From the NCBI GenBank assembly GCA_032718475.1, contig JAUCBJ010004980.1, positions 1 to 64,000 on the forward strand: a stretch of 64,000 nucleotides of DNA. Direction: 5' to 3'. Made by a program: the position numbers and the translations under genes. Shown piece by piece: positions 8,041 to 64,000 of the stretch. The notes beneath the pieces are model-generated. The model ran no database searches, was not told the origin of the DNA, and saw only the letters and a list, made by a program, of their open reading frames with translations. This DNA comes from Nemertoderma westbladi. Its lineage: Eukaryota > Animalia > Xenacoelomorpha. Position 1 is the first letter of the stretch. Every line of letters begins with the position of its first letter.

Positions 8041-8205
8041 TAAAGTTATTCAGGAAACGACATGCCGATTTCAGGGCGTTCATAACGTATAAAAACAGGA
8101 TATGAGTTAGAAAACAATTGGAGCTGGATTTAACGCCTGTTCGTATATTATTATACTTAAATGTTGCTAGTTCTGTAGTTACTTACATACCATCACCACA
8201 CCGCT

Positions 8206-10814: not shown

Positions 10815-10850
10815 GTGATTAGATCCAACAACCCGAACTGACTGCCAACC

Positions 10851-11459
10851 ATGAGTCAAGAGAGAGAGACGACACCGCCGCGGACCCCGGACGACAACCT
10901 AACGATCCGCGAGGCCACGGCGAGACGGTATCGACCCACGACGGATCCGTCGACTACAGACGATCCGGCAATCCAAACAGAGGGGGGCCGTCTACAACGA
11001 GAAGGGAGAGACGAGTCGAGAGAAGGGAGAGACGAGTCGGGAGGAGAGAGAGACGAGTCGACACACAGCGGCAGTCGACGTGCCGATGTCGCCGGCCAGC
11101 CACAGGCCGAGGGCGACGGACGGCCCACCGGAACGGCAAATGTGGAGCCGCCGGTACGACGCCGGACCCGGAGAGATAGAGGAGATGTCGGCGACGAGGA
11201 CGTCGGGGTCAGCGATCGATTTCGACGGGCCTACAACGCAACCCGGAAGCTACTCAAAGAGACCAAAGGAGGGGCCAAGACAGACCAGGTGAAGTTGAAA
11301 AGGCGACTAGGTGAGTCGAATGAACATTTTAACTATTTGATGCGTTTTGGGCAGAGAGAACTAGCCGAGGAGAGAGCAAGAGGGGATGCCAGCGAACTGT
11401 TTGAACAATGGCGAATCCAGCGCTATCTAATTTCTCAACGGCGGAATCTCTCAAGCTAA
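10851..11459 (+). CDS. 202-aa charged low-complexity ORF downstream of the LTR (gag-position, family unrecognised)
   Basis: Intact ORF with Kozak-like context gccaaccATGA, RDES repeats and a helical-looking C-terminus; no CCHC knuckle. Confidence 0.55.
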   Translation: MSQERETTPPRTPDDNLTIREATARRYRPTTDPSTTDDPAIQTEGGRLQREGRDESREGRDESGGERDESTHSGSRRADVAGQPQAEGDGRPTGTANVEPPVRRRTRRDRGDVGDEDVGVSDRFRRAYNATRKLLKETKGGAKTDQVKLKRRLGESNEHFNYLMRFGQRELAEERARGDASELFEQWRIQRYLISQRRNLSS

Positions 11460-14400
11460 GTTTGGTTAATGCGCGGTCTTTGAACTGACTATCAACGTTA
11501 CGGAACGGAGTCAGAAAGTGCCGAAAGCATTCGAATTGGATGAATTTATTGTGTTCATCTAGTTTAGTGAGTTTAGTTCTGAGTACCAGTGGGTGGGCAC
11601 GTATTGTTTGGCTGCACACATCGGCTATCCATCCAGAAAGTGTGGCATTCTCGAATATGGTATATATAGCTAATGAGCTATAATAATATATATATATATA
11701 TAATAAAGCTATAAACAACTCCTGGTGCTGTTAATGGTCTGTCGAAATATAATTGCGAATAATGGTCGCCATAAACTCGTTGATAGCTGACGGGATCCCC
11801 AACTTTGAAATTCCATCCATATTCTTGGAATGTCAGATGTCCGATGGAAGTCCTTTGTACTTTGTTAATTCCGCTAGGTGTATTGGTATACATGAAACGG
11901 AAAAAACCTCGACCTTATACCCAAGGTGCTATCAATTGGGTGTCTACGAAAGGGTATGGGATGTTTTCCATATTTCTAAAATCGTTCTGGAGATCTCCAT
12001 AAAAAGCTGAATCGATATTAATGATTCTTTCGTCAAATAGCATTTCGAGGCCTGGTTGGGGTGACATAGATCCATCTATATCCATTGCCGGTTTGCATAT
12101 TGTATTGATTACATACTGGTGCGCGAGTTCGAATTGTCCATGTCTGAGTCTCTTTTGTATATCTGTAAGGGTTTCAAAAGAGTAGTCGATCGCATCGGAA
12201 CAGGCCCGAGGTGCCTAGATCCATCTATATCCATTGCCGGTTTGCATATTGTATTGATTACATACTGGTGCGCGAGTTCGAATTGTCCATGTCTGAGTCT
12301 CTTTTGTATATCTGTAAGGGTTTCAAAAGAGTAGTCGATCGCATCGGAACAGGCCCGAGTAAAAACATGGGTAGAACCAGCTAATCCTCGTATGTGAATC
12401 ATTCGCTTAGTTCCTAGTTCTCCATTAGGAACACTACCTTCATTATTGTAGGTAACCACTCCATACATTTCGATAATGTTACGAGATTCGTTCCACTCCT
12501 CTGTGGCCTTTTCTATAGTCATACCCACAGGATGCCATAATGTCGCTCATTCACTGGTGTTAGGTAAATCGCGATATTTTAAATAATGGGTAGTATGTGT
12601 GGCTGCATCTCCATATCTCTGTATCCTTTCTTCTTCGAACAATACATCTAGATTCCAATGAACTAGTCAAGTTTTAATAAATCCATCGAGGTTGTATGGA
12701 GGTATTACGTCATTTTCTATTCTTGAGATGTTATAAGGTTTTCTAAATGAGTTTGCTTTAACTAATTGGTCCAAATGTTTTTGTAGTTGTTCAAGTTCAA
12801 CAAGGTCTAGGGGATTTATCAATGGTCGAAACTTTAAACTATGTGTAGGATCTTCGGGTTTCACCATATAATATTGAGCTAAGTGGACATAATAGGGGTG
12901 GTCTTTGATCCCGTAAAATGAGTTCTGTAAAGGTCTAGCGCGTATGTTAACCTCGTGTACCATGCGATGGACAAGGTCTGCTTGATTGTCCGGGGGGTCA
13001 ACGAGTATACTGTCAACACGAGCAGCTTCAATCGGCGGACGCTGTAACTTAGGAGCGTCAGCGATAAGATCTCGAGATCTTAAGTTGATATCAACCGGTT
13101 GAGGTTATGATGTTGCGAAGAGTTTATCTCCGAACTGAGGTACCATCGAAGGATGAATGATGGTTTTGGAGTAGAGATCAGTCATAAGTATCTGAGCTTC
13201 AGGTTGAGCTAAAGCTGCTTCTTCTCTCTTGTCCATTTCGATATGTTTCTCCTCTAGCTGATTCCTCTCTGCTTGTCTTTGAAACCGTTCGCCCAAGAAC
13301 TCTTGTAACAAATATGTATGTCCAAGTTCAATATCTCCCTTCAGATTTTCGATTTCTCGATCGAACTGAGGTAAAGCTAATTATTTTACTGCTTGTACTT
13401 ATTGATGCAATCTACATTTGTCTAAACAATCATAGGTTCCTTTTCCGATCTTTTGCCGAATTGCGTCCAGTGCCGGGACGATTATACGGGTTGAACGGAG
13501 ATATTAGATGTCTGTGTCCCAATCCTGCTAGGTAGGAAGGGCGAATATCTAAGGAGCCCACAATCGGAGTGCCACCGACCAATTGTTCTGGTAGCACCAG
13601 ATCTTTGAACAACGAGTACAACTCAGGAGGATCTGTCATACTGTTAGGGTCGAGAGTCTACGGTCGCACCGGAGAATAAGGAGGTCTGACCGAGTATTCT
13701 GGAACTCTGATCATAGGTTTACTTAAGGATCGTTTGAGTCGAGCGAGCGTGGGTGGCACGTGGAACAGGTTTTGCACAAAACTCCCATAAGTATAGCGAG
13801 TGAAACTATGTTTAGCGCAACGTCTCCGCAGGTGTTTATGGCGTTCCGTTTGTTGATTGGGTCTAGGGCATTCAATGCAGTAATACCAAAGATGCACATC
13901 TTGTAAAGGAAACGCTGGCGACTTTTCTCCTGTTTTACAATATTCATCCATCTATTCAAAGCTATCCGGTAGAACAGGTAGGGGTCAATTAGCGGTAAGA
14001 TACATCATAGTAAAATACAATCATTTAGGTTCCTCATTTGTTATAGGATTAGGATATATACCTTGCGGATATCGAGTTTCTAAATTTTGTTGACTAGCTA
14101 CTTTGAGATAAGTTTCTCTCAGGAACTCTAAATATTCGTAAAAGTTAGTACGCTTGTCTGGTTCTTCAACATCTTCCCTTTCGAGTCGGTTTTGAATATA
14201 ATTTTCATGTTCGATTCTCAGTTTGTCGTTTCGACTCCGCTGCGCGTGATATTTAAATAACATCATCTCCCTTTTGGTATGATAGGATAGGATGACCAGT
14301 AGTCAAGAAGTTCATACCATTGTGATGGGTATAGCACGCGGTGAATTTTCTATAGTCCCATTCACACTTAAGCTGTTCCTCGGACATCAGCGGTTCGATA

Positions 14401-16050: not shown

Positions 16051-16087
16051 AGATCAATGCTTTGGATAATTTAGTTAGTATTATTAA

Positions 16088-17654
16088 CCCTATTAAACCC
16101 GGGGGGGGGGGGGGGGTGGGGGTCAATATGACCCCCCCCCGTGGTTTTTTTATTATAATTCTGAAACAAACGCAGTTGGGAATCTGAAATTTTATGACTT
16201 TTCCTAAAAATGTATTGTCTTAATGGTAGTGAAAACCGTTTTCAAAAATATTGGGTACTTTTCGAGTTATAGCACCATTTTTTAACCCTACTTTTGGCAC
16301 TTTTTTTGAGACGTTTTTTGAAAATTACATTTCATTAAATATTAATTGTAACATCTCTATTTTTGATTTGCACCGGTTTTTTGGTGTTAGAAATTGGATG
16401 GAATTCATATAAATTGATTTAGAAATTTCAAACTTGTTTTTTTCGATGGGTGCCAAATTTTGGTGCCAGCACCAAATTTTGAAATAAGTCAATTTTGTAA
16501 ATTGATTGTTTGAAACTTGTTTTTTACGCAATTGGGGTTTTTTGAGGTTCTGGATTCGATGAAATATATACGAGTTGAACCAAGCGTATCAAACTTGTAT
16601 TTTTCAGTGCTGTGTGCTAATTTTGGTGCTAGCACGAAATTTTGAAAATCCATTCAATATATAAAATTGCTTGTGACAATTTATTTCTTGCGTTTTAGAG
16701 GTTTATGGCTGTTCTGAATTCAATGGAAAATATAATTATCGAACTTGACATCTCAAACTTGTATTTTTCGGATGTGGGTGCAAAATGTGGTGCTAGCACC
16801 AAATTTTGAAAACCATCAAATATATCAATTGATTGTGTCACCTTGTTTCTTGCGTTATACGGGTTTGTGATGGTTCTGAATTCAATGGAATCAGTAAAAA
16901 TTTCATAAGAGTTCTCAAACTTGTATTTTTCGCCGGTGGGTGAAAATTGTTGTGCCAGCACCAAATTTTGGAAAATATGCAAATTGATAAGTAGATAGTA
17001 TCACCTTGTTTCTTGCGTTATACGGGTTTATGAGGGTCCTGAATCCGATGGAATCAATAAAAACAGCACTGGACATCGCAAACTTGTACTTTTTGGTGAT
17101 GGGTACGAAATTTGGTGCTAGCACCAAAATTTGCTAAATTACGCCGAAAAATACAAGTAGCAATGATCTGGCATATTAGAAATGTATTCCATTAGAATCA
17201 GCGCCCTCGAAAACCTGAAAATGTGAATTTATAGCATCGTATAAGTGAATTAAAAATTTTGTGTTCTAACTGAAAAGTGCTGGTTACTTGTTTTTTTCAT
17301 TTTTTTCCTACGCAGAGAGGACTAAACAGCCATTTATAGTAATCATATCATTTTTAAATATTTTCCAATGTATTTTGCACCCCAAAAAACCTGTATTGAA
17401 AAATAATTAGCCGAAAATGTAACTTTCAAATTTGGTGAAAATTGTGCACTACTTGTAATTTTGGTGCTGCAATATAACCACCCCAGTACATTTTTTCGAA
17501 ATTTTTTTTTTTCGGTCGGATCCAGACATGTGATACCTACGTACAAACAAAAAATCAGACGTTTTCGTAAATATTTGTAGATTTTAGAGGGGGGGGGTCA
17601 ATATGACCCCCTCCCGGTATTTGTACAACATTTTATAGCCCGGTACTAATAGGG
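16088..17654 (+). mobile_element. Non-autonomous piggyBac-type element
   Basis: TTAA|CCCTATTA ... TAATAGGG|TTAA; subterminal gtcaatatgacccc; internal ~160-bp tandem units containing the palindrome tggtgctagcacca. Confidence 0.9.
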
Positions 17655-18351
17655 TTAAATGTGCCGCTGTTAGATTACACTGTTGCTTGAGAAAATATGT
17701 GGTGAAATTAAATCGGGTCTATCTTAACTTATATTAACTCTTCACTGAACTTTGATATATTAGTTTCATTTTAGATTACACTTTTTTATCGAGGACAACC
17801 AACACAACCAACAAGCAACCAAGGAAATTCCCAATAGAAAGGGAATTTTTACAAGTTAAAAGAAGACGGATTACCAATTGATATCATATGTTTTCAAAAA
17901 TATAATTTAAAAATTATAAACTTTTGTTGAAATTTCATAATTAAAATTAACGATCGATCAGTGGATCTCACCCAATAGGCCAATAATATAATTTAATTCA
18001 AGATATTAATAATTTAACTACAGCAGTTGTAGAGTTAACTAAAGGAGTTGTATACTGTGCAGTGCATGAGGAACATACTATGCATTCAGTGCATCACTGA
18101 ATGCTGAATATAATATTTCAACATTTCTGCACTGGCATTGCCTAACCAATACCACATATGGATATTGGATACATAACGGAGAAACTATATTATAAGTTGG
18201 AGGATAAAGGGCATGGACTTTTTGAAAATAATTGCAAATTACTTGCTTTAATATTTTGGTAATAGATGTGTAGATTACGTGATTTAGAGAGTTAGTATTA
18301 ACTGTAGGCCTACTTGACATTAGCTTAAGTTGTAGGCTCTTCTGTATATTA

Positions 18352-23118: not shown

Positions 23119-23994
23119 TTAATAAAAATTATAATACCACCAACGACTACCTAAACCTCCTTGACAAACAATTTGACGTACTTTCTTTTACCGAAACATT
23201 TCTAACAGACAATACGGAAAACGGAACAGGAGGGGCGGGACAGCCATATACCTAAAAAATGGACTAGACTACACACACCATACAGATATTACAATTGAAC
23301 ACTGCAAATCTCCTTGGGTTAGTATTTCTAGAACAAAAAATCTAAAACCAATATTAATAGGCAACATTTATCGTCCTGATTCCTGCAATCTAAATAATTT
23401 TCTAGAAATTATTAACAATTTACTTTATAATTTATCAACTCAAAATCTTGACATTATTTTTTTAACCAGCGATTTTCTTTTAAAAAAATCAAACAAAGCT
23501 ATAAAATATCTACAAATTTTAGAATCATACTCCTTTGAACAATTAATTAAAGTGCCTACAAGAATAATCCCCCATTCCAAAACTCTACTTGACCACATTT
23601 CAACAAATATACGAGATAAAATAATAACTCCCGGTGTTTTAGTTGCAGAATACAACTGACCATTTATTACAATTCAAAATTACATTCAATTTACAATTTT
23701 TTAACCCACCTGAAACCTGCTATACTTACGACTATTCTAAATTTAAAAAAGAAAACTATCTAAACGATTTGCGTGAAACCAGCTTGTGGATATATAAGAA
23801 TGATAATATCCACAAGCTGGTTTCTCGCAAATCGTTTAGATAGATGATAATATTATGACTGAAAATAAATTTGAAGAATTTTACAAAAATTTTGAAAAAA
23901 TAACGAGTAAACACCTACCGAAAAAAACAATAAAAAAAAATGAAATACCAAAAAAACCCTGGATGACCATAGGACTGATTAAATCGTCAATGAC

Positions 23995-25373
23995 CGCAGG
24001 AATTCTTCCAACAGTAAACCCAGCATGTTCATCGTCAAACTCTCTTCAGTATCAACTAAGAATGAAATTCTCAAAGCAAAAAACAAACTACGAAACTCAG
24101 CAAACAGCTCCCAAGTGTACGTATCACGTGACTTAACACGTCTTCAAGCTAAACAAGGGTACTTGCGACGTCAGGCAAGGTCTCAGGTTCATGAAACAAC
24201 ATGTCTGAACGAATCGTCGATCGGGCCTTCACAGGCCTGAAATTCCTTGCGCTCAGCCAATGCTACCTGTACTGCTACCGATCTAAATTCATCTGATATC
24301 AAGGATGATAAGTCTGTTTTATCACCGACATTAATTTACATGAACTGCCACTCAATCCGTAATAAACTTTAAGCTCTTCGTTACTTGATTACAATTCACT
24401 CGGGTCATCCTATCATAGTTAGCCTAACAGAAACTCACCTGATCAATGATGAATCAGATGATATTTTCTCCTGCCCCGAGCTGAAGGATTTCACTAATTT
24501 TCGTCGCGACCGACCTGGGAGTACAAGTTCAGATCGGGGCAGCGAGGCAAGCAGGGCTCAAAGCATACCGGGAACCCAAGCGAACTCAAACATAAACTCA
24601 GTCGGAGTTAGTCTCAGGTTCATGAAACAACATGTCTGAACGAATCGTCGATCGGGCCTTCACAGGCCTGGAATTCCTTGCGCGCAGCCAATGCTACCTG
24701 TACTGCTACCGATCTAATTTCATCTGATATCAAGGATGATAAGTCTGTTTTATCGCCGACATTAATTTACATGAACTGCCGTTCAATCCGTAATAAACTT
24801 TTAGCTCTTTGTTACTTGATTACAATTCACTCGGGTCTTCCTATCATAGTTAGCCTAACAGAAACTCACCTGATCAATGATGAATCAGATGATATTTTCT
24901 CCTGCCCCGAGCTGAAGAATTTCACTATTTTTCGTCGCGACCGACCTGGGAGTACAAGTTCAGATCGGGGCAGCGAGGCACGCAGCGCACAAAGCATACC
25001 GGGAACCCAAGCGAACTCAAACATAAACTCAGTCGGAGTTAGTCTCAGGTTCATGAAACAACATGTCTGAACGAATCGTCAATCGGACCTTCACAGGCCT
25101 GAGATTCCTTGCGCGCAGCCAATGCTACCTGTACTGCTACCGATCTAAATTCATCTGATATCAAGGATGATAAGTCTGTTTTATCGCCGACATTAATTTA
25201 CATGAACTGACGCTCAATCCAGCCCCGAGCTGAAGGATTTCACTAATTTTCGTCGGGACCGACCTGGGAGTACAAGTTCAGATCGGGGCGGCGGGGTTGC
25301 CATGCTAATTTCTGATAGTTTAGTGCCTACCTTGGTTGAAGGTACCTCGAGAGGTGAGTCTTTATGGGTTGAC
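23995..25373 (+). mobile_element. Triplicated internal fragment of a second LINE (ORF1 end / APE start)
   Basis: IVKL...VYVSRDLT (ORF1) and YMNCRSIRNKL...SLTETHL...RRDR...RGGGVA (APE); unit ~430 bp repeated three times; flanked by TGAC. Confidence 0.85.
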
Positions 25374-26142: not shown

Positions 26143-27502
26143 GTAAACTGCGAGAAGACTCATTTCATTCCTAGATGTTAGTGAGGGTGTCACTGAGAGC
26201 AATTGTCGACTGCACTCTTGAAACTCATTGATGATCTTAACCTCGACCCCAACAAGATACGTAGCCAATGCTACGACGGAGCTGGAAACATGTCTGGTGC
26301 TATTAAAGGAGTTGCGTCCCGAATTCAGTCTCTATATCCGAAAGCTCTTCCGTTTTGGTGCACCACACATCAACTGAATCGGTGCATTGTCCAATACTGT
26401 GTGATACCCGCCATACGCAACATGATGTCCGATGCTGATTAGCTAGTAAAGTTCTTCAATTGGTCCCCTGCCAAAGAAAATGCGCTCATGTTAAACACAC
26501 CTAAAGAAAAGCAGTTGAAGCTAAAATCCTTATGCCGGACACGCTGGGTGGAGAGACATGTGGCATTCGATACACTAATAAATCTTCTACCTCACATCAT
26601 AACCACCTTGGAAGACTTTGCAACAAAACCGAGCACTGGAAAGCCTGGAATGCCATCTGCATCATCTCTTGTAAAGACCGCCACTGACTTTGGATTCATT
26701 GCAGCCCTCTTTATTGCCCACGGTTGTCTTTTTTATATTAAAGGCATTACCAAGTCTCTGCAGGAACGGTCCCTCGATGTCGGACGTGCCTTCAATCAAG
26801 TGTCTCTTGTAAGAGAAACTCTCTCTGATGTTCGCAACAACATTGATGAATTCCACAATGACCTATTCGATGAAGCAAGAAAGATTGCCGATTCAGTTGA
26901 CATTCCTGTGGAGAAGCCCTGGACATGTATCAGACAAACCAAGCGCAGTAATGTACCCACCGAGGATCCTAGTGAATATTATCGGAGATCCATTATGATT
27001 CTGCTGATTGATCACTGAATATTAGAAATGGGAACTCGGTTCACATGCTTACAGGAGAGTGCGACTATGGGATGTACACTTGTTCCTTCCATAATGAAAG
27101 CCAGCCCAACCATCGATAAACACAACACGACACGTCGACAAGCACTGCCTTGCAAGTGAGATCCACCAGTGGTTCAAGATGTGGAAAGGTCGTGAAGATG
27201 CACCAACAATGATTGTTGATGCAGCAAATGCATGTGACGAGGATTTTTACCCCAATGTGAAGCGTGTTCTACAAATAAGTGCATTGTTCCCGGTAACCAG
27301 TTGTGAGTGTGAGAGGTGCATCAGTGTAATCCGTCTCCTCAAAACTTACCTACAGTCAACTATGGGCCAAGACAGATTTACAACTCTTGCACTAATGTAT
27401 GTCCATCGGGAAATTGACATAAACCACGAAGGTGTTGTTAAAGAGATTAGTAGGAGACAGCCATGCCGTATTCTTCTACCAAATATTATTTTCGAAACAT
27501 AG
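26143..27502 (+). pseudogene. hAT transposase (THAP12/ZMYM1-like), with stops and frameshifts
   Basis: QCYDGAGNMSG, CTTHQLN, CRTRWVERH, PVTSCECERCIS..LKTYLQSTMGQDR dimerisation motif; hAT-type end ctggatccgcccctg at 28620-28634. Confidence 0.92.
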
Positions 27503-28136: not shown

Positions 28137-28299
28137 AATATTATGTAGTTTTAATCGGTTTTTTTTGTGTATAAATAGTTATAACTGTTACCTTCTGATT
28201 CATTTGGTTTTAAAAGAAAATATTTGACACAAAAAGAACACCAAAAATATTTTTGGAATTTTTTATAAATCAATTATTGTGGGGTGGGTGACGGCGAAT

Positions 28300-28572
28300 A
28301 AATATATATGTTATAGTACGTTATGATAATGCTCTCCATAGCTAAATATATCAACCGCCTCTATTGGGGCTCGAACCCGGTACCTAGGTGTCAAACTTCC
28401 AGTTATCATCAGCCGAGTATGTGTCCTAAGACCACTGAGCTACCAGGGTGGTAGAACATTTATTCGCTATGGAGTGGGGTATAATTGGGTATCGGGTTCG
28501 AGCCCCAATAGGGGCAGTTGATATATTTCGCTTTGGAGAGCATTATCATAATGTACTATAACATTTATATTT
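28300..28572. mobile_element. Foldback tRNA-derived SINE-like element with internal hammerhead (copy 1)
   Basis: Inverted arms; the minus strand has box A TAGCTCAGTGG (28432-28442) and box B GGTTCGAGCCC (28367-28377); the right arm repeats box B and the tail on the plus strand. Confidence 0.8.
28375..28418 (-). ncRNA. Type I hammerhead ribozyme motif (GAAA mutated to GACA)
   Basis: actcgg CTGATGA t aact gga agtt t GACA cctagg TA ccgggt; 6-bp stem I and palindromic stem III. Confidence 0.7.
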
Positions 28573-28649
28573 TTGGAATTTGCTCGCCCCTGATTTATTC
28601 CCCCCCGGCTAGGTGACCTCTGGATCCGCCCCTGACTCTAGTCATATAT

Positions 28650-30271
28650 CAGTTGGTCTCGTTTACGATTTTGAGTTTAAGTCTACACTGGCACAGTTAT
28701 AAGTGCATCGGATGCAAAAAAATTAAAAAGCAAGATGTAGAAAATCATCATGGGATGGTCTCAACAATTACAATCCAAAATAGTACTTTAGTTACTGACC
28801 CAGATACTCCAAAACATCCACATTTTTGTCAACCACTCACAAAAGCCAAGACCATTGTTAAAGAAATCGATTGGACGAACACGTGTGGAAATATGTGATG
28901 GAAAGAGCCCAAAAGTAGCATATAATGAAAGTCTTTCTTCTATTACCAGCATGGATACGTCGAACTTAGAAAAACACTTAATTGAACAGTTGATGCCCCA
29001 GTATAGCTCTGTTAAATCGAGTTACATCGAACAAGACAGTCATCTATGCCATCGTGTTTATGTGTCCATGATATACCACCCATGTTGAAATTGTCCCTCC
29101 ATGGCAGATTTGCAGATCCTGTAGATGCGTTTTTCGGTGAATCGTTTCTCATTTATGAGAGTGTTGAGCCGAATCCGCCCCTTTTGATACTAGGAACAAC
29201 GGAAACGCTAGGTTGGGGATATTATAGGCATATTATATGTGATGGAAACTTTAAGTTTCAGCCAACTAAAGCCCATCCTTTCCTTCAACTTTATACAATC
29301 CATGGATTCGTTGCTGGTGAATCGATTCCGCTGTTGTATGTCTTAATGTCCTATAAGAATGAAGTTAAATACAAGGTCGCTTTTAATTTCATTCGCGAGA
29401 AGGTCATGGAATGTTTTGGAGATCCTGAAAATATGTCCACCGCAGTGTGGCATTTCGATTATGAAGATGCTGCTATGAACGCCATTCGAGATGTATTTCC
29501 ATACTGCATTGTGACAGGGTGTACATTTCATTATTCAAAAGCTATCAATACAAAGATAGTTCTGAAGAAAGCTTATGCTGACATGTCCATTGTTAGGAAA
29601 TGGTTCTGCGGTGGAATGGTGAGTGTGGTATTTGGTTAACTTGTTTCTGATGAACCAGTGACACTGGTTGCCCAAATCAATGCACAGCTTCAAGATTTCA
29701 TTGGTTACTACTGCTGGTGGTTATGACCTGAATTTATCACCATATGGAATTACTTTGATAATGATGGACCTCGCACAACAAACCTCGCACAACAAACCAC
29801 GCTGAAGGCTTCCACAATGGCCTTCGTTAGCACTTTAATCGACCACACCCCCGTTTGAGTGGGTTTCTGCACAAAGCGCAGCATTGGAACAATTCGTATT
29901 GCATTCGCGGACGCCGCCAGTTGGATGATGGTACTGTACTGCTGTGGCGCGGCCTCGACTACAACTATACGTACGTATCAACAAAGAGATAGAGGCAAGG
30001 AAAACCAACTTCAATCTGAAGATTCAGAATGCACTAACCGCGAAAAGAAAATGCAATCGATATATGATAGGATGTTTATCCTTATTTGGATAAAATGCAA
30101 CAACTTTTAGGAAATTTAATCGTATTTAACGTTGACATTGCCAATATCAATAGTTAATAATTAATTGTGCAATATTTTGATATTGTTTGTTTTCTAATTG
30201 TTTGATATAATTGTTATCATATCATTTAGTTCCTGATATGCTATGTAGATAACGATTTTTATGATGGGGGT

Positions 30272-42189: not shown

Positions 42190-42330
42190 TGTAATATTAT
42201 GGGTTTGTTCAGAAGTGGAAAAAATGAGAAAGCGCCTGTTAGGCCGAAACTTACGTATAGCGCTGGTTCAACCCCCGGTAACGCGCTTTCTCATTTTTTC
42301 CACTTTTCTGAATAAACCCATAATATTACA
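42190..42330. mobile_element. Short foldback element with hammerhead 3' half and box B (second family)
   Basis: ~46-bp inverted arms enclosing gcct gtt aggc c GAAA c ttac g TA tagc gct GGTTCAACCCC cgg. Confidence 0.55.
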
Positions 42331-42655: not shown

Positions 42656-42865
42656 TATTTAGGTTTTCAAGGGTGCTGATTCCGATTGCAGTGATTATTT
42701 TCAATGAAACTGATCAAATGCTAATTTTTGGCGGCAGCTAAAAAATTAAAATTACAAGTAAACTTGTAATTTTGGTGTTTGGTGTGACGCCAAAAACCGA
42801 AAAATCATCAGAATCATTGAAAATAATGATTGCAATCGGAATCAGGACGCTTAGAAACCTAAATA
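42656..42865. repeat. Imperfect inverted repeat (MITE remnant)
   Basis: tatttaggttt...ctgattccgattgca...attttcaatga is mirrored at ~42807-42865. Confidence 0.6.
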
Positions 42866-43126
42866 TCCAAATATAGAAGTGATTGAGATAATTCTACTTT
42901 AGAATTGGAAATGCGTTATTTACTTGCACTTTTCATCCATTGGTTTGTCGCTTTCAAATCCAAGGAAGTTTTCTGAAATATATTCACTACTGTTATGAGG
43001 AAGGGGCAGTAGTAGTCTTCTGTTCTGTCTTTTGTTTCGTAATGGATACGGGCTTCGACCAGGGACAAATGGCGAGAACGCTTTTTTTGATAATGCCATT
43101 TCAACAAGTTTTTTCCCCCGATTTAA

Positions 43127-44685
43127 CCCTATTAGTACCGGGCTATAAAATGCTGTACAAATACCGGGAGGGGGTCATATTGACCCCCCCCCTCTAAAAT
43201 CTACAAATATTTACGAAAACGCCTGATTTTTTGTTTGTACGTAGGTATCACTTGTCTGGATCCGATCGAAAAAAAAATTTTCGAAAAAATGTACTGGGGT
43301 GGTTATATTGCAGCACCAAAATTACAAGTAGTGCACAATTTTCACAAAATTTGAAAGTTACATTTTCGGCTAATTATTTTTCAATACAGGTTTTCTGGGG
43401 TGCAAAATACATTGGAAAATATTTAAAAATGATATGATTACTATAAATGGCCGTTTAGTCCTCTCTGCGTAGGAAAAAAATGAAAAAAACAAGTAACCAG
43501 CACTTTTCAGGTAGAACACAAAATTTTTAATTCACTTATACGATGCTATAAATTCACATTTTCAGGTTTTCGAGGGCGCTGATTCTAATGGAATACATTT
43601 CTAATATGCCAGATCATTGATACTTGTATTTTTCGGCGTAATTTTGCAAATTTTGGTGCTAGCACCAAATTTCGTACCCATCACCAAAAAGTACAAGTTT
43701 GCGATGTCCAGTGCTGTTTTTATGGATTCCATCGGATTCAGGACCCTCATAAACCCGTATAACGCAAGAAACAAGGTGATACTATCTACTGATAAATTTG
43801 CATATTTTCCAAAATTTGGTGCTCGCACAACAATTTTCACCCACTGGCGAAAAATACCAGTTTGAGAACTCTTATGAAATTTTTACTGATTTCATTGAAT
43901 TCAGAACCATCACAAACCCGTATAACGCAAGAAACAAGGTGACACAATCAATTGATATATTTGATGGTTTTCAAAATTTGGTGCTAGCACCACATTTTGC
44001 ACCCACATCCGAAAAATACAAGTTTGAGATGTCTAGTTCGATAATTATACATTCCATTGAATTCAGAACAGCCATAAACCTCTAAAATGCAAGAAATAAA
44101 TTGTCACAAGCAATTTTATCTATCGAATGAATTTTCAAAATTTCGTGCTAGCACCAAAATTTGCACACAACACCGAAAAATACAAGTTTGATACGCTTGG
44201 TGCAACTCATATATATTTCATCGAATCCAGAACCCCAAAAAAACCCAATTGCGTAAAAAACAAGTTTCAAACAATCAATTTACAAAATTGACATAATTCA
44301 AAATTTGGTGCTGGCACCAAAATTTGGCACCCACCGAAAAAAACAAGTTTGAAATTTCTAAATCAATTTATATGAATTCCATCAAATTTCTAACACCAAA
44401 AAACCGGTGTAAATCAAAAATAGAGATGTTACAATTCATATTTAATGAAATGTAATTTTCAAAAAAAGTGCCAAAAGTAGGGTTAAAAAATGGTGCTATA
44501 ACTCAAAAAGTACCCAATATTTTTGAAAACGGTTTTCACTACTAGGAAGACAATAGATTTTTAGGAAAAGTCATAAAATTTCAGATTCCCAACTGCGTTT
44601 GTAAAAGATTCCCAACTGCGATTATAATAAAAAAACCACGGGGGGGGGGTCATATTGACCCCCCCCCCCCCCGGGTTTAATAGGG
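43127..44685 (-). mobile_element. Non-autonomous piggyBac-type element, inverted near-identical copy of 16088-17654
   Basis: TTAA|CCCTATTA ... TAATAGGG|TTAA; the same shadow ORFs appear on the opposite strand. Confidence 0.92.
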
Positions 44686-46104
44686 TTAAAGCCATTTATG
44701 AAATGTACATCAAATGAAAAATTAATATAGAATTATAATTCACTTAAAGTAATTAAAACTGTGGGTTTAAAATACCTTGAGCATATATAAATTTACATTT
44801 AAATAATAATATACACTTTAAAAATGTAAACGTTATTTGTAGAATTATTATTAATTTCACCAATTTACAATCTAAATATGCGAAACTATAATTTGTGAGC
44901 TCTCAACAATATAAAGTGAGGAAATATTCTAATAACGATTGTCTGCGAATCCTTTTTCAGTTTTCCATTTCACCTTCCTTATTCGTTACAGTCAGGGAAT
45001 AATTTGTAGTTTGCATAATTTACATTTAGTCTAGTTAGGACTACTATGTTGGACGGTGTTATGCAGAAATGTGTCAACCCACACAAACACCATTTTGAGA
45101 AAATTGAGTTTAAAGTTTCTGACCTCAAATTAATTGCGTTTTAGGGTATTTGCAGTCGTACATTATACGTTATCAACTTATATGATCTGAATGCTTAACT
45201 ACAGTAATGCTTAGGAAGAATATTAATTACATAAATTTCCTTTATTTATTTGTATGGAATTAATTTCGCACTACTACATCTTCAGGGCGACATATTTTTC
45301 AGCTTTATATCGCAGTGCGACATTATTTCTCAGTTCTGTATATCCCTACGCCATACATTTTACATACTTGGTGACTGCGTTACGTCGATAACAACCATAT
45401 CAACCATATCGATACAGGTTCATGTAACTAGCTATAGTAGTGCCCAAATAATGCAATATATCTGCTAGAATACATAGACTCGACATAGAATACTAGAATA
45501 CATATTATAATGTCGCCGTTGCAATATATTGAAATACATTGTATGGATGTCCAGGTAAGAAACCATTACGTTTCCATGACATCACACAGTTATCGGGTTA
45601 GGACTTTGTATAGAGTACTTTCAAAGGCTATCTAAAAGGAAAGTAATAAGTTAGGACTTTAGCGCTCCCGGAGTTAATGCAAAAGCTTTTATTGTTAAGT
45701 GTGAACACAATTTGCTAAACGGAGGGGTATTCGCAATCAATATTCGGCGAGTTAGCGTATTAGGGTATTTGCGGTCTTACAATAATTTATCACTTAGTAC
45801 AAATGTAATATAAGTGTTTAAATGTGTTTGTAAGTTAGCATTATGGCCATTCGATACTCTTGAGTGTTTAAGTGTGTTTGAGAAGTACCAATTCCCATAA
45901 TGCCGCTAAGGGGGGCCAAGTTTTTCATACACATGACACACTGGACTGCAAAAGTGGTAAAAAGCTAACTTGTTGGAAATTGTCTAAAAAACGTTTTGAC
46001 AAAGTTTCAGATTGCAAGGACCACGAGTTAGCACTTTGAGTTAGCACTTTGGAAAAGTTAGCACAATAGCGGAAAAAGAGCTTGCAAAGTTAGCTCTTTG
46101 GTAT

Positions 46105-46676: not shown

Positions 46677-47204
46677 GAATCCAATCACATTTCTGCCCAT
46701 TTACTATTACTGGGTGATACTTACTGTCAACAGTCACCATCATACCGATACCACTACACACTACACCTCTATTACATTACCTGCAAGTTAGTTACAATAT
46801 TTTAAAATTGTTTAGTTCATTTACTTTCGGTTTAGTGTTTAGTACGTGTAGCAGTTTAAAATTCTAAATAGCTGTTTTGATTTTGTTATAATCAGCCGAT
46901 TTTCCTGAATTATTATACAGTAGGCTGTAAGATGCGATTGCCTGAAATCTAAGTTTAGCTGCACCGGTACTTTTATTTATTACATGGGGAAAAAAGTATA
47001 ACTTTTTTCACTATTCTCGGGGTATTTTATTTTATTGAACTGCATTATTTTACTACATAATATTGCTTCCATAGTTACTGCGATTCAAATTACTGTACTC
47101 TTCAACTGCTGTTGCTGCCTTACTAAATGTTAAATAATTTAGTGATCTAGAATATTTATTAAGTAACTAGAGATCCGCTTAACAACACAAACCATTTTTG
47201 GATA

Positions 47205-47561
47205 TTAAGTATATAATGTAGTAGGACAATATAATAATGCTCTCCATAGCGAATAATATCAACCGACCCTCTATATTAGGGCTCGAAGCCGGTACCTAGG
47301 TTTCAAACTTCCGATTATCATCAGCCGGGTGTGTGTACTGAACTACCAAGACGGGTGAATAATTCGCTAGGGAGTGGGATATCATCTAGGCCGACTAAGC
47401 ACTCAAAGGAATGTACAAATTCTCAAAAATAGCGAATTCTTCACCCATCCTGGTAGCCGGAGGTTTGAAACTAGGTACCTGGTTCGAGCCCCGATAGGGT
47501 CGGTTGATATTTTTCGCTATGGAGAGCATTATCATATTGTCCTACTACATTATATACTTAA
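47205..47561. mobile_element. Foldback tRNA-derived SINE-like element with internal hammerhead (copy 2)
   Basis: Arms ~47205-47369 and ~47430-47561; homologous to 28300-28572; box B GGTTCGAGCCC at ~47481. Confidence 0.82.
47289..47328 (-). ncRNA. Type I hammerhead ribozyme motif, intact core
   Basis: ccgg CTGATGA taatcggaagttt GAAA cctagg TA ccgg; GUA cleavage triplet and palindromic stem III ACCTAGGT. Confidence 0.75.
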
Positions 47562-48594
47562 ATTCTCCGTCACTCACCCCACAACAGTTCATTTATTATT
47601 ATTAATATTGGATATTGAGTTCCGTTTTGGAGTTCGCCTTGCTGCAGACACTAAAGTTGCAATACCTTTTCAGTGTGTGAATGGATTTTGCTCAAATTAC
47701 GTGCAAACCTTTTCTACTTCGATGCTCTTTCAACACAAGCAATAAAATTTAAGAAATTCCACCACAAATATTTTATTTTACCTTTTTTCGCCGGGAAAAA
47801 AGTAAAATCAATGAAATCCTATGGGCTATGGGAAGAAAAGAGAAACTTCTTCTCCCGATTTTGGGGTATATTCTTGCGAAAAAGTAACAATTTAAGAATA
47901 AAATCTATATTAGAACTGCGAAATCGAAATGTGTATCGTAATAACATCACCCATCATTCCGAGATTAGATTATCACATTTAGCAGTTTGATTCGTTTGAA
48001 TCTGATTCGATTCCAGCGTTGAATTTGTTTTATTTCACAGCTTTTTATAATACAATGGCAAGTTGATTACTAATGTGGCTAAGGGTTCCAAGGCAGTATA
48101 AATTGTCGGAAATGTTGTGAACTGGTAGGATCATTGAATTAATTATTAGTAAATTACCAGTGCAATGAAGTTGTTTTTATATAATAGGCCTATAAATGTA
48201 CAGCATTTACTTATCATTCTGTACCTACCAAATTACATGAAAATTTATTATAGTAATTATTATGGTACTTATTTATGCTAGTCCTATTATTTTTTATTAT
48301 CTTTATTAACACAGTTAGACTAGATAGTCGTAAAATTTCAACATCAAACAGATAAAATAAGCGGGAAGTTCAAACTGAAATTAGAAAGAAATTGAAACTG
48401 TACCGGTATTTAAAATTCAAAAGCAACGTTACATTAATTTCCTAACTATTAGTTGTATCAAAGTTAATTAAAATGATTTAAAATGATTTAAAAATAATAT
48501 AAAAACATGAGAACTAAAGTAAAATGTTACTATGAGAGCTACTGTAAATGAAAGTAGAAGTAAAGCACCAAGCTCCAGTAAAGCTGCACCTACA

Positions 48595-49090: not shown

Positions 49091-50221
49091 GTTTTACTAG
49101 TGTTTTCCTAATTCAGAATTAGCCATTAATAAGTGAGAATGACTGTCAATATATATATTATAGCAACACGAAAAAACAAAACCATGTTAAGATTTTTTCT
49201 ATTGGGGTTTACCTGGTCGCTGATTTCATTTCTGAGGTCAGTTTTCACATTTTAATGAAATATAGTTAGTCTGTATTTCTCTTTCTGTCGGTGTTTCTGA
49301 CTAACCGACAATCTGTCCATCAAATATAAGAAAATGGCACACCATCTAGGAAAAGGTTTCCTAGTCGAATAATTCATTTCGAGAGTCAGATTTAAGATTT
49401 CATGACTTTCCAAATTGTCTGTCAGGCTATCCGTTATATTTTGACGGAGATAATGACAGGCACAGAAAAGACGAAGCCAAATTTGAATACCAGCCCCACA
49501 TCAGAAATGATGTCACGTACCAAGGAACCTCATTTAGGACATTTTTAGACAGATAGTATGACTGCAAAACGGTTTTCATATTTGGAATCTTGATAAAAAA
49601 CTACTCTAGATGAAATAAAAAAAAAATGAAACAAAATTTGAAAAAAATAAAAAAAATGTGAAAGCCAGTAACCCCCCCCCCCCCCCCTGTCTATACTTAT
49701 ATATTAATTGAACTTGTGTCATCACACAGGCATTAAACTTGTAGCAGGTGAGGCAACTTCCCTGTGGCATTCCAATAATGGCTACCAATAATTTTCCTTA
49801 TCCAATTTTCAAAAATATTGTTCTATTCTTTATTGTATATTCTATGACAGTCAATAAATACTATATAAGTATTTGTGATATATAATTTAGAAGGCCACAG
49901 AGGTCTGGGGCCATAATAAACATACAGTGAATTAAAGGACAAAATAGTAAAAATTGACTATAAAATCTAGTCATTAAATTTTTTGTTATTTTTTAGTTTT
50001 TTTCAGATTGTACCTGCAGATGCATTTAAGTAGTGATTTGTAATAACGCAATAACATGGCACCCTCCCTCACACAAAGTGTGTCTATAACATAACTGACC
50101 CCCTCACTCGAGGGCGTCAGCAATTAGTAGAAACGGCATCATATCAGTGATTAATCAGATTTGTTTTGCATTATTTCCGTATAATAATTATGATAATTCT
50201 AGAATCCAGCATTATTGTTTG

Positions 50222-50795
50222 GTTCGAATACGTAAGGGAAAGACATGGGCAGCCTTGAATAGGCTTTCCAGGATTTGGAAGTCACCGATAATTAATCGGA
50301 AACTTAAGGTCCGATTATTTAGAGCAGCAGTAGTTCCAGTACTCCTCTACGGGAGTCCATGCTGGGCTCTAACTGCTGAGGACACCAAATCTCTGGATGG
50401 CACATTCACAAGAATGCTACGCCGGGTTCATTGTGTCAAGTACAATGCACACATCTCCAACCATACACTATATAACATTGGAGGTGTCTCATTGGTTCCC
50501 CCAAGCTTGACACTAGAACAAAATCGCCTCCGCTTTGCAGGACATTGCTTTCGCCGTGAGGACCAGCCAGTGCATAATCTTGTACTTTGGCAGCCTCATG
50601 GAGTGAATAAGCATGGTGGACAGCCTATGACTTTCTTGAGACTCATCTTAAAGGACACTGGCCTTAAAGATGCGGATGATCTAGCAAATGTCATGGGTGA
50701 TAGGGAGTTGTGGCGGTGCAATTTTGTTGACAAGCCGGCACAGCATTCTTAAAAATGCAGCTGCAATGCAGCATGCCGATCCTAGTAGTAGTAGT
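50222..50795 (+). mobile_element. RTE-clade LINE, 5'-truncated
   Basis: RIRKGKTW..KVRLFRAAVVPVLLYGS..RLRFAGH; (TAG)n tail; flanked by gtttggtt on both sides. Confidence 0.92.
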
Positions 50796-51644
50796 TTGGT
50801 TAATTCTTTGTAAAATAATTATTGGGATTAACATCATATATATATGCACATATTATGATAACAATAAAGTAATAGGAACGCATTTTAAACAAACATGTTC
50901 AGCATGATCCGGTCTCTTGAATATAATTTTGGGTTGAACAATCATTTAATCATCATTTAATTATGAAGGGACACAATGATGACTACATACGTTTGAACAG
51001 ATAGGAACATGTTGATTCTCTGTTTCCAATTAAATTTACTTGCTTGATATTGGTCTGTCAGAAATATATTTCGCTCAACCCAAAATTATGCACATATTAT
51101 GTATATGGTCCCTCATATACAGTATGATCTGTCACCTGTGTTCACATACAGTATAATAAGCATAATGTCAATTTCTTTGGTTATATTTCTTTAGTAATAA
51201 ATTTATTTAGTTATAATCAGCATTAATGAATATTCCATTGTCATATGCAGCAAACATTCTGTCCATTATTTCCTCGCTGTTACTTTCACCGGAAAATTTA
51301 TAACATAGTACATAAAGGTTGTTCGCAAGCGCGTCAAAGCGCGTCAAAATTGACATGAAAAGAAACATCAACATATCTACAATCTTCAAAACTGTTTGGC
51401 CTATATTTCGCCTCTGGTACCATCGCAATTGAGTTTCTGGAAACAACAATGATTAATATAATTTCTGCAGCAAACATGATTAGTAGTAATGTTGTGGTTG
51501 AAAGTGACACAAAGGAGAGGGTTAGTATATATACAAAAACAATATCATATACCAAATATACGAAATATTAAAAATAAATGTGGGTAGCTGGAATCAACCC
51601 GTAACCCGACCTACTTAAAAGAATAATATACAACAGTTTAACAA

Positions 51645-57721: not shown

Positions 57722-59400
57722 CAATATTGGATCAGCCCAAGACTTCATTAACGCTGCAAGAAAAGCAAAGCTTCTTCAGAATCCTAAGGAAGTGTTTGCT
57801 AAGTCCCTAACCCCTCTTGGGCTCACTAAGCTCACTCATCTTCAAAAGCTGCTCTTCAAGAATATCATGCAAGATATTGTAGGCAGTTCTTCAGGGTTGA
57901 ACATCAATTTAATAAACAGAAGGTCAGTTGAGGAACTCTCCTTGGATGTGGTGGAATGTTCTTTGACATATGAAATTAAAACACTAACAGCTGGGTTCAA
58001 AAAGCGCGTAAATGTATCCAACATTATATCCACCAATTAATTTGTGGACTTAGTCACAACCATACAAGTTGAAGTGAAATCACTTAAGGGAAAAGTCCAG
58101 AACAGATGGAAGCAAAGCATAATAAAACAATAATTTGCACAACAGCGGATGACTCTACTCACGACAATAACAGCTTATATACGGACGAAGATGACAGCAA
58201 TGAAAAGATACAGAACAGTGAGATAGAATGTATAAAAAGCACACCAACAACTAATATTATAATACCCTCAGTGAAGAATCTGTCACAGTCGAGGAAGTGC
58301 TTTGCAGTAATACATCATGGCAGAAGCCTGTAGAATCTAACCCAGTCAAATCAAGTCGTGAATCAACTACAAGTACTGGAATTAAAATATCCAACAAATA
58401 TGAGGAGCTTGATTGTGATTCCAAGAAAGCCCTCCTGATACAGCAGCAAAGTAAATTTTGTGTGGGCCTTCAAAAGATTCCAAGCGAAGTAAATATTCAA
58501 TCCTGCATGCCACAAGGGAACAAACAGTTAAGAAAAAACGAAGGACCTGAGCCCAGACTATATGAGGACCAAAAAGTGGAGGATCCACAGATTAAGCCCC
58601 TTGGCAATGGTTATCAAGGGACAAATGATGATAATACAGATCTAAGGACAGTAATTGTTACGGGACTACGATACGGGATATTGTTACGGATACCTTCCCG
58701 TTTGGTGGAAGCAGAGACGAGATAAAGAGAGTGAACTTTTATTTGTTGGTAGTCCGACTACCAACCAAATACAAGTTCAGTCTCTTTATCTCGTCTCTGC
58801 TTCCACCAAACGGGAAGGTATCCTCTAAACGTAATGTCAAGGGCCAATCCGGTTACTTGAAGTCTGCAGTGGTAACCATTGAGAAATTAGAACTAAGGAC
58901 TTACCTACAACAATCTCTCTGGCCAGGGAACAACCCTACAGTATATCAGCAACATTACAAGCCTACAATGCAAGTGAAAAAAGCGAGATACACCTCAACC
59001 CAACCCAGTGAATCTCTTTCCTATACAAACCCCAGTCTAAATACGATGCAGGGGGAGATAAATATCTCAAAATGCAGTAGTAATCAGAACTGGAACTAGG
59101 CAATAAACCACAATGGCCCCTACCCAGACTACATATCAAATTACGGCAGCGAATGGTATAATCATCACCCATATAAACGAGTTTGTAGGAAAACTCTTCT
59201 CCCTGATCCAGTATATAACAACATTTATTTCAGCAGGAGCCAACATTACCCGAGAAATAACAGCCCATATATATCTAATCAAGCAGCCCAACCATCATGG
59301 AACAGACAATTGTCTACCATCAACTGTAGCTCGATGTATAACAACAAATTTGTACCAAACAATCGTTTTAAATCGTTCAATGCTAAAACTCCAAACATGT
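57654..59400 (+). pseudogene. Continuation of a LINE ORF1-like region (coiled-coil, RRM-like)
   Basis: Consecutive same-strand ORF fragments; RTVIVTGL|PTKYKF...KSAVVT is RRM-like once the 58670-58761 insert is removed. Confidence 0.45.
58688..58823. repeat. Near-perfect ~67-bp-arm palindrome
   Basis: ggataccttcccgtttggtggaagcagagacgagataaagaga...gtagtc c gactac...tctctttatctcgtctctgcttccaccaaacgggaaggtatcc. Confidence 0.95.
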
Positions 59401-62237: not shown

Positions 62238-62512
62238 GTCGGTCGACCCTGTTGCGTGTCCATCCCACCCTTCCCAAACCCCGAAGGGATCGGTCATCAG
62301 GAAAGCGGTATGGCTTGGCTAAGGGTCAGTCAAGTCGGTAGACCCGGTTGCGTGTCCGTCCCACCCTTCCCGAACCCCGAAGGGATCGGTCATCAGGAAA
62401 GCGGTACGGCTTGGCTAGGGGTCTGTCGAGTCGGTGGACCCATTTGCGTGTCCGTCCCACCCTTCCCGAACCCCGAAGGGATCGGTCATCAGGAAAGCAG
62501 TACGGCTTGGCT
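62238..62512. repeat. GC-rich 96-bp tandem repeat (~3 copies)
   Basis: gcgtgtcc occurs at 62254, 62350 and 62446; the array is interrupted by the RTE tail. Confidence 0.92.
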
Positions 62513-64000
62513 ACTACTACTAGGATCGGCATGCTGCATTGCAGCTGCATTTTTAAGAATGCTGTGCCGGCTTGTCAACAAAATTGCACCGCCACGACTC
62601 CCTATCACCCATGACATTTGCTAGATCATCCGCATCTTTAAGGCCAGTGTCCTTTAAGATGCGTCTCAAGAAAGTCATGGGCTGTCCACCATGCTTATTC
62701 ACTCTATGAGGCTGCCAAAGTACAAGATTATGCACTGGCTGGTTCTCACGGCGAAAGCAATGTCCTGCAAAGCGGAGGCGATTTTGTTCTAGTGTCAAGC
62801 TTGGGGGAACCAATGAGACACCTCCAATGTTATAGTGTGTCTGGTTGGAGATGTGTGCATTGTACTTGACACAATGAACCCAGCGTAGCATTCTTGTGAA
62901 TGTGCCATCCAGAGATTTGGTGTCCTCAGCAGTTAGAGCCCAGCGTGGACTCCCGTAGAGGAGTACTGGAACTACTGCTGCTCTAAATAATTGGACCTTA
63001 AGTTTCCGATTAATTCTCGGTGACTTCCAAATCCTGGAAAGCCTATTCAAGGCTGCCCATCCATGCCTTTCCCTTACGTATTCGAAGGTCCTCACCTGAC
63101 TTCCGGATCCATGATCCCAGGTAACAGAAGTCGTCCACATGCTCAAGCATACCATCCTTTGAGCTTATGCTCATCCGATCAGAGACTTGCTGAGGACTTT
63201 CAAAGTTAACTGTCAGAATTTTGGTCTTTCTGGAGTTAATAAAAAGACCAACACTAGAAGCAGCATGTTCTAATGAGCCGAGGAGCCGTTGGGCTCCCTC
63301 TAATGATTCTGAGAGTACTCCTAAGTCATCAGCAAAGTCTAGATCAGTTAGGTACTTGGCAGGATTTCCTCGACTTCTGGAGCCAGTAGGTGGAGTTATC
63401 ATCACCCCATCTTCATTATGATGATCTAAGGACATGCGTAGAACATAGTCAACCACAATAATGAACAAGAATGGTGCAAGTGTGTCTCCTTGGAGAACGC
63501 CCCATAATACTTCAAATGGTTCTGTGTCACCGTCAACAGTAGACACAAATGTTGTCGAACCATCGTATACTGATCTGATTGCTGCAATAATTTCATCAGG
63601 AATCCCATATAATGAAAGTATGCTGAACATACGTGAGCGAGAGACTGAATCAAAGGCCTTGAAGAAGTCAACAAAGATAACAGCCAGATGCCTGTCTTTC
63701 TTTTTTGATAATTCTTCAATTATCCTTCTAAGTGCCAAAATGGGCTCCATGGTCCCACGACCTTTACGGAACCCATTCTGATTTCCATGGAGCAGTCTCT
63801 CAATGGGATCCCTGATGCGATTTAATAGAATCCTATTGTATAGCTTTGCAGCAATCGAGATCAATGAGATTCCCCGAAAAGAACCATAGAGTGTTAGGTT
63901 GCTCTTCTTGGGAACTGGCACCAACTTATTTGTTTTCATTTCTTGTGGGACTCTTGTTGTACGGTACATGTCTACTATGATGGGATATATGAGCTTTAAA
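62511..64000 (-). mobile_element. RTE-clade LINE with RT domain (continues beyond the window)
   Basis: FRGISL, QNGFRKGR, FVDFFKAFDSV, GVLQGDTLAPFLF, DLDFADD, FCYLGS; a 4-nt duplication frameshift at ~63060; (TAG)n tail. Confidence 0.95.

Follow-up and report, generated by a model that had tools for sequence, protein, structure and literature searches.

A candidate hammerhead ribozyme between putative tRNA-type promoter boxes in a high-copy repeat of Nemertoderma westbladi with a Penelope-like insertion footprint

A hammerhead motif lying between what resemble the two boxes of a tRNA-type promoter raises the question of what kind of element carries it, how its copies are made and whether promoter and ribozyme could both be in use. 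The motif belongs to a high-copy repeat in a window of 64,000 nucleotides from Nemertoderma westbladi (positions 1 to 64,000, forward strand, of contig JAUCBJ010004980.1, assembly GCA_032718475.1), which holds two copies of the repeat, at 47.2-47.6 kb and 28.25-28.58 kb, ~77-85% alike (Table 1). A reading of the letters alone had placed the first copy at 47205..47561 and taken it for a SINE; the element extends further, over 47207-47603, and its best explanation, to which we assign a probability of about 0.6, is a head-to-head, high-copy repeat with the footprint of a Penelope-like element (PLE), likely a non-autonomous pLTR in which tRNA-type boxes (a putative Pol III promoter) enclose a minimal hammerhead. 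The best reading of the arrangement is that the hammerhead stands in for the anticodon/variable region of a tRNA-derived promoter. For comparison with other copies, contigs of four DNA runs (X1-X4; at most 3 samples, 3 studies) were placed on 47050-47720 at 80% likeness, and majority letters were taken against the 47.3-kb copy, statements on them referring to the 40 rows listed of 69.

Table 1. Features of the two window copies of the repeat (window positions; strand as +, - or none)
Copy	Feature	Position	Strand	Remarks
47.3 kb	Left target-site duplication	47194..47206	+	11/13 identical to right copy; 9 bp exact at 47198-47206
47.3 kb	Long arm without tail	47207..47385	-	Upstream family sequence, tRNA-like segment, hammerhead, 3' segment
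47.3 kb	Bracketing helix, 5' strand (12-13 bp predicted)	47362..47374	-	Upstream of tRNA-like start; common to 28.3-kb copy
47.3 kb	Box A, mutated here	47337..47345	-	Majority letter at 47342 gives TAGCTCAGT; next GG missing
47.3 kb	Minimal type I hammerhead motif	47289..47328	-	Predicted cut 47293/47292; stem II weak
47.3 kb	Box B, mutated here	47279..47289	-	Majority letter at 47288 gives GGTTCGA
47.3 kb	Bracketing helix, 3' strand	47242..47254	-	Majority letter at 47254 gives T5 run at strand start
47.3 kb	Spacer between arm heads	47386..47428	.	Near single-copy depth at 47395-47417
47.3 kb	Inverted arm	47429..47561	+	Stretch from box A through to stem II deleted; box B 47481-47491; T5 run 47510-47514
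47.3 kb	One-sided AC-rich tail, ~40 nt	47562..47603	+	30/35 identical to 28.3-kb copy tail; high contig depth
47.3 kb	Right target-site duplication	47604..47616	+	Host repeat resumes here
28.3 kb	Left target-site duplication	28247..28261	+	15 bp exact; 6 bp possibly arm end instead
28.3 kb	One-sided tail	28262..28299	-	On the opposite side relative to the tail of the 47.3-kb copy
28.3 kb	Long arm	28300..28485	-	tRNA-like fold 28357-28448, box A 28442-28432, hammerhead 28416-28377 (GACA), box B 28377-28367
28.3 kb	Short inverted arm, tail-less	28488..28566	+	Begins within ~5 nt of predicted cut site; box B at 28495
28.3 kb	Right target-site duplication	28567..28581	+	Exact match to left copy

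Insertion footprint and abundance of the repeat

In both window copies (2/2) the arms are head-to-head and unequal, one of them being a truncated inverted copy, and a tail of ~40 nt stands at one end only; tail-less ends are also present among the loose ends of contigs. The earlier description of a 3' tail inverted at both ends is therefore correct for the inverted arms but not for their symmetry, the extra ~40 nt belonging to one arm only. Target duplications, which that description had overlooked, accompany both insertions, being AT-rich and with ATT within both, and measure 9-13 bp at 47.3 kb (13 bp with 2 mismatches, 9 exact) and 9-15 bp at 28.3 kb (15 bp exact). Among 1500 random flank pairs, the chance of such a duplication was 2.0% for at least 9 bp and 0.7% for at least 15 bp. 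Moreover, the junctions are variable: among the 15 joints listed of 82, the pairs 47319-47503, 47320-47570 and 47385-47523 are observed, the first position of each pair marking the end of an arm and the second the start of an inverted arm. The distance from A9 to the arm end is 114 nt without the tail and 145 nt with it.

PLE insertions are described as having a 5'-truncated copy in inverse orientation, short duplications and, at one end, a tail of 30-40 bp (PMC8557442, PMC3846280). For example, Pen2a from Adineta has a 31-bp tail and 8-10-bp duplications (PMC3846280). The tail of the anole PLE corresponds to the interval separating two RT start sites on an AC-rich RNA; its ORF begins at stem II with one RT start 111-118 nt into it, and its endonuclease prefers ATT (PMC11167929). 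The inverted truncated arm, the one-sided tail, the duplications of 9-15 bp and the variable junctions bear out the proposal that PLE machinery mobilised the repeat, which is very probable. Fixed terminal inverted repeats with uniform duplications, as expected of a DNA transposon, are not seen, the ends being asymmetric and the duplications differing in length.

The joint 47193 to 47604 is present in X4 contigs, and the joints 47187/47193 to 47604, which correspond to the host repeat without the insertion, are found in all four runs (4/4); they probably represent other host copies and not an empty allele. The host repeat around the insertion (47050-47193 and 47604-47720) is itself very high-copy, with a summed depth of ~100,000 in X1, and has almost no further copy within the window.

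Summed contig depth in X1 reaches 172,000-201,856 over the hammerhead core and 24.6 over the spacer, and the hammerhead/spacer ratio, which is to be read as a sign of many copies and not as a copy number, is 8206 in X1, 3069 in X2 and 3197 in X3. This excess of core over spacer depth indicates that the repeat is very abundant. The start of the spacer (47386 on) resembles the loose-end consensus of other copies.

The hammerhead motif and the boxes around it

The minus strand at 47328-47289 reads as stem I (CCGG/CCGG), CUGAUGA, an extra U, a short stem II, GAAA, the palindrome ACCUAGGU, an A and the 3' strand of stem I, with a GUA site, and the 8-nt stem III palindrome is common to both window copies. 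The sequence-only reading regarded this as a complete type I core. That holds for the core boxes, the 4-bp stem I, the 8-nt palindromic stem III and the GUA site, but not for stem II, which has at most 3 bp (either 3 bp flanked by U.U, or 2 bp, a mismatch and 1 bp), lacks the closing pair G10.1-C11.1 in both forms (A-U or U.U being found instead) and is not predicted to fold on its own. This weakness of stem II argues against canonical completeness and against a functional ribozyme, as do the 0 matches in the window to a stricter minimal-hammerhead descriptor and the outcome with Rfam, proposed earlier as a check, which called neither a hammerhead nor a tRNA (E<=1 over the whole window, E<=10 locally). 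The GACA of the 28.3-kb copy likewise speaks against function. A descriptor tolerating one extra base on each side of stem II has the 47.3-kb site as its sole window match, matches the 28.3-kb copy also when GACA is permitted, and has 0 matches in 60 Markov-null 64-kb sequences.

CUGAUGA and GAAA, whose loss from the consensus would speak against a ribozyme, are kept in the majority letters of the family. Among the variants listed, the sole core variant is the free position 7 (47320), with 47% in X4 and <1% in X1-X3. The majority letter at 47314 turns a U.G pair of stem II into C-G (99.9% in X1), and the stem II loop is variable at 47312 (58%); stem II is still weak after the majority letters are substituted.

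The predicted energy of the monomer hammerhead fold is ~0, being +0.7 for the 47.3-kb copy, -0.9 for the majority letters and +1.6 for the 28.3-kb copy, and the dimer form, with -14.0, -17.2 and -12.2, respectively, is predicted to be 14-16 kcal/mol more stable. The free cofold minimum lies below the hammerhead dimer in the three cases (-28.8, -22.8 and -16.9, in the same order). With a monomer energy of ~0 and a dimer above the cofold minimum, any cleavage would have to rely on a dimer or on assistance from a protein, which has been reported for PLE hammerheads (PMC4209133, PMC11167929). The models predict that the hammerhead would cut weakly, as a dimer or with protein help, and that this candidate ribozyme cleaves measurably is possible, if somewhat doubtful.

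As had been claimed, box A and box B enclose the core in the 28.3-kb copy; they are 65 nt apart, and counted from the first base of box A the core starts at +30 nt and the predicted cut site is at +62 nt. Overall, the boxes stand in the correct order at a spacing of 56-65 nt. A strict A+B pattern, composed after seeing the 28.3-kb sequence, has that copy as its sole match and occurs in 0 of 60 nulls. Also, the 3' strand of stem I does double as the 5' strand of the T-stem, its last base being the first G of box B, in agreement with relaxed ARAGORN. Searching the head with this tRNA finder gave a divided outcome: no tRNA is called by default, but at a relaxed threshold 28357-28448 is called as a 92-nt pseudogene with a long variable arm, in which the 5' strand of stem I is the anticodon and stems II and III fill the variable arm. 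The background of the relaxed setting is 1 call in 1000 shuffles of the local 350-nt stretch and 12 calls in 30 null 64-kb sequences (0.4 per 64 kb), with one other, unrelated call in the window. The acceptor, D and T stems of the tRNA-like fold are degenerate, with mismatches, and 3 pairs of the T-stem remain with the majority letters (47493). Neither the tRNA-fold nor the ribozyme-fold, put forward earlier as possible alternative conformations, is the predicted minimum-energy fold.

Majority letters restore the first 9 nt of box A at 47342 (99.5%) and box B at 47288 (99.8% of depth, X1), and at 47254 (88%) they make a T5 run 29 nt after box B, which is already present in the right arm. The presence of tRNA-type boxes around the hammerhead is thus backed by the 28.3-kb copy and by majority letters from four DNA runs, and a tRNA origin of boxes A and B is quite probable. 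Intact boxes and an intact core are combined in 0 of the 2 window copies: at 28.3 kb the boxes are intact and the core is broken (GACA for GAAA), and at 47.3 kb GAAA is intact, boxes A and B are mutated and the copy is 9 nt shorter behind box A. A 9-nt insertion restoring the GG of box A does not appear among the 12 indels listed of 28, and X1 depth over box A is ~20,500, ~7-8x lower than over the hammerhead and box B. The low depth may reflect truncation or divergence and, together with the indels listed, suggests that many copies may be without a full box A. Since the hammerhead lies between two tRNA-type promoter boxes, the repeat is a likely, if putative, object of Pol III, and for a master copy the odds that this putative promoter is used by Pol III are about even.

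Readings of the element

Upstream of box A the two long arms share 30 of 39 bases, reaching more than 30 nt beyond the expected Pol III start, and a loose-end consensus (5 contigs, X2) runs on in similar sequence past 47385. This suggests that the copied RNA entered the unit from upstream and that the copies do not begin at a Pol III start. Folding predictions join the upstream part and the 3' segment in a 12-13-bp helix around the whole tRNA/hammerhead domain (8.5-10.9 expected pairs); whole arms fold no better than their shuffles (z -1.0 to -1.6), and short pieces give z values of -0.6 to +1.5. Moreover, no A-rich, microsatellite or LINE-like 3' tail is found, the ends being either a PLE-type tail or a plain AT-rich arm end. 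A Pol III transcript of the unit would not include the upstream part and would be prone to terminate at T5, short of the tail. A true SINE, with a Pol III start at the tRNA-like head, the hammerhead in its body and PLE proteins copying it, would explain the order and spacing of the boxes, the fold called by relaxed ARAGORN and the T5 run after box B. However, the tRNA-like part is internal to the repeat, the upstream bases are shared and extend further in other contigs, the T5 run precedes the tail, SINE-type tails are missing and the depth over box A is low. The earlier designation as a SINE is for these reasons not maintained, and this reading is quite improbable.

Under the preferred reading, that of a non-autonomous pLTR, a PLE RT/GIY-YIG protein would nick AT-rich DNA, and reverse transcription would start at two RNA sites ~40 nt apart, as PLE biochemistry suggests (PMC11167929), which would leave one arm with the tail and the other without it. 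Truncation and inversion would give the head-to-head form. The template would be a long RNA entering the unit from the upstream unit of a tandem master and reading through T5, by analogy with Sm-alpha (PMC6765202), and such an entry would account for the copying of sequence upstream of the tRNA-like start that is able to pair with the 3' segment. Against this explanation, Pol III would be halted by the T5 run, 29 nt behind box B, and would not reach the tail required for reverse transcription; a Pfam scan of 26 window ORFs gave no RT or GIY-YIG; and the sole PLE promoter described as studied (PMC2377424) is a LINE-like internal promoter.

Alternatively, the copies might be 5'-truncated solo pLTR stubs of an autonomous coding PLE, whose ORF would begin at the AUG in CUGAUGA, with the arm and tail as its first ~49 residues; the boxes would then be part of the pLTR of that coding PLE. 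The anole PLE has an ORF that starts at stem II and contains the RT start sites (PMC11167929); the frame expected from it is that of the AUG in CUGAUGA, and the 47.4-kb right arm keeps this frame open all the way from the core through the tail. Also, most genomic minimal hammerheads are ascribed to truncated PLEs (PMC4209133), and the contig depth drops steeply upstream of the core. Nonetheless, 49 open codons have a probability of 0.063 by chance, both 28.3-kb arms carry a stop in this frame, a change of U in the AUG (47320) makes up 47% of the depth in X4, and searches gave no protein homologue: the 43-residue arm frame, taken as a PLE N-terminus, has no match among longer proteins (a weak test), and P0001, its sole match among 1.84 billion representatives, was rejected as a translated tandem repeat. 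This alternative is unlikely, and between the two a non-autonomous element is somewhat more likely than a coding one. A second short arm frame, starting with ATG GAG, was dropped as unremarkable in AT-rich DNA.

Somewhat less likely still is that the boxes resemble a promoter by chance or are a relic no longer in use, in which case the repeat would be an ordinary PLE pLTR that Pol II reads and the hammerhead might be vestigial too. The failure of Rfam and default ARAGORN to call a tRNA and the 0.4 false calls per 64 kb of relaxed ARAGORN are consistent with this, as are two of the 31 metagenome matches (L010 and L022), where a seemingly canonical hammerhead is followed by GGTTCAA with no box A upstream, which indicates that a box-B-like word can follow stem I by chance. 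Nonetheless, an 11-nt box A and an 11-nt box B are found jointly at tRNA spacing (0/60 nulls; 1/1000 local shuffles), and at both sites the majority letters shift towards the box sequence. The two metagenome loci themselves (L010:1501-1543 and L022:1501-1543 (minus)) contain seemingly canonical type I hammerheads with a palindromic stem III and are unrelated to the present family. As for a foldback DNA transposon (MITE) with long terminal inverted repeats, the inverted arms and the TTAA at which the 47.3-kb arms end would fit, but arm lengths and junctions vary, the tail is one-sided and the 9-15-bp duplications differ between copies; this asymmetry and variability effectively exclude it, and it has a very low probability. 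A piggyBac/MITE assignment drawn from the TTAA ends was rejected, the 28.3-kb arms being without TTAA ends.

Relation to known systems and surroundings in the window

The minimal type I hammerheads of animal PLEs (Cervera and De la Pena 2014, PMC4209133) are marked by an extra base after A9 and a palindromic stem III, features that the present motif shares along with the short stem I, the predicted dimer and the occurrence solo or in opposite-strand pairs, the latter being known at distances of 100-700 bp. They differ in having the highly conserved G10.1-C11.1 and usually a 6-8-bp stem II, as against A-U or U.U and at most 3 bp here. Moreover, the available description of them, apart from the supplementary alignments, names no tRNA boxes, whereas the Nemertoderma repeat has tRNA-type boxes. 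Among Penelope/Poseidon PLEs, anole PAc (PMC11167929) and Adineta Pen2a (PMC3846280) are similar in the inverted truncated pLTR, the optional one-sided tail of 30-40 nt, the AT-rich target and a hammerhead-to-end distance close to that observed here. Unlike these two elements as described, the repeat carries tRNA-type boxes, has duplications of up to 15 bp and was found here with no coding parent.

In Schistosoma, Sm-alpha and Sj-alpha likewise join a tRNA-derived Pol III promoter and a type I hammerhead in one high-copy repeat (PMC6765202, PMC2770079, PMC8490949), and in Sm-alpha the upstream unit drives the next one, like the upstream-entry template proposed here (PMC6765202). In these repeats a canonical, active hammerhead comes after the promoter, and tRNAscan still recognises the tRNA part (PMC6765202, PMC2770079, PMC8490949); in contrast to Sm-alpha, the Nemertoderma repeat has a minimal core between boxes A and B, and its copies are head-to-head PLE-type insertions. 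The non-LTR retrozymes of animals, too, are repeats with a type I hammerhead and no coding sequence that are regarded as non-autonomous derivatives of PLEs, and the available descriptions present them without Pol III boxes (PMC7229834; bioRxiv 10.64898/2026.07.22.740005). They are defined as head-to-tail tandems (PMC7229834), whereas both window copies are inverted pairs and no head-to-tail tandem of the repeat is present within the 64-kb window. Helenus/TRIMp3 (Kojima 2024, PMC10886601) has its tRNA-derived Pol III promoter inside the terminal repeat of a non-autonomous element and not as a SINE head, but it is described as an LTR element with PBS, PPT and 4-5-bp duplications and with no ribozyme. 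The likeness to the logic of Sm-alpha and Helenus is drawn because the RNA would enter from upstream and the promoter would lie inside the terminal repeat.

PLE hammerheads, inverted pairs and tRNA-promoter-plus-hammerhead repeats (Sm-alpha) are thus already in print, each separately. A hammerhead nested between boxes A and B was not found in a full-text literature search; supplements, or Repbase/Dfam, could contain a similar family. Viral contigs gave 0 matches to the family pattern and 1 chance match to a general core-plus-box-B pattern, and metagenome contigs gave 31 matches to the latter, with 0 of 32 loci similar to the family by BLAST.

The cut site between boxes A and B would make testable in one short construct two questions that are described as open, the role of the PLE hammerhead and the polymerase that reads non-coding PLE derivatives (PMC8557442, PMC11167929). 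Both boxes are required in the DNA for transcription, and cleavage of the RNA would part them. A speculative and rather improbable scenario is a PLE-mobilised RNA parasite with a ribozyme within its own tRNA promoter: cleavage would yield a permuted unit that starts (5') with box B and finishes (3') with box A, the promoter would be rebuilt only on copying of a circle or tandem, and a Pol III stop at T5 would produce an abundant RNA of ~110-125 nt, a possible trans dimer partner to the long PLE RNA. If true, promoter, processing switch and copy control would be coupled in ~90 bases. If the use of Pol III is true, PLEs would possess their own equivalent of SINEs which, unlike LINE-dependent SINEs, keeps its promoter inside the terminal repeat; with a dead ribozyme and unused boxes, by contrast, the repeat would be an ordinary PLE stub.

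The window has a GC content of 32-47% (2-kb bins) and is rich in transposon debris, with hAT and MULE fragments and many repeats. Broken hAT (PF05699) and MULE (PF10551) transposase fragments flank the 28.3-kb copy at 26443-27502 and 29016-29639. A GC-richer block (42-47%) at 10800-13100 holds several frames of 120-205 aa with no Pfam match, and a 431-bp unit at 24180-25220, in 2.4 tandem copies that are 96% alike, also has no Pfam match; we take its frame to resemble the start of a LINE endonuclease. Foldbacks at 5465-6019, 23756-23843, 42190-42330, 42656-42865 and 58688-58823 contain no hammerhead by the descriptors applied, and two 19-bp tandem arrays in opposite orientation (2592-3284 and 3730-4777) form a large foldback. 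Three LINE-like 3' fragments (7628-8182, 50099-50800 and 62511-63164) are 93-97% alike, two of them with weak DUF6451 matches. Finally, a 1.57-kb element present at 16084-17660 and 43121-44689 (95% identical) is bounded by short terminal inverted repeats, encloses a 163-bp tandem array and has the appearance of a non-autonomous DNA transposon.
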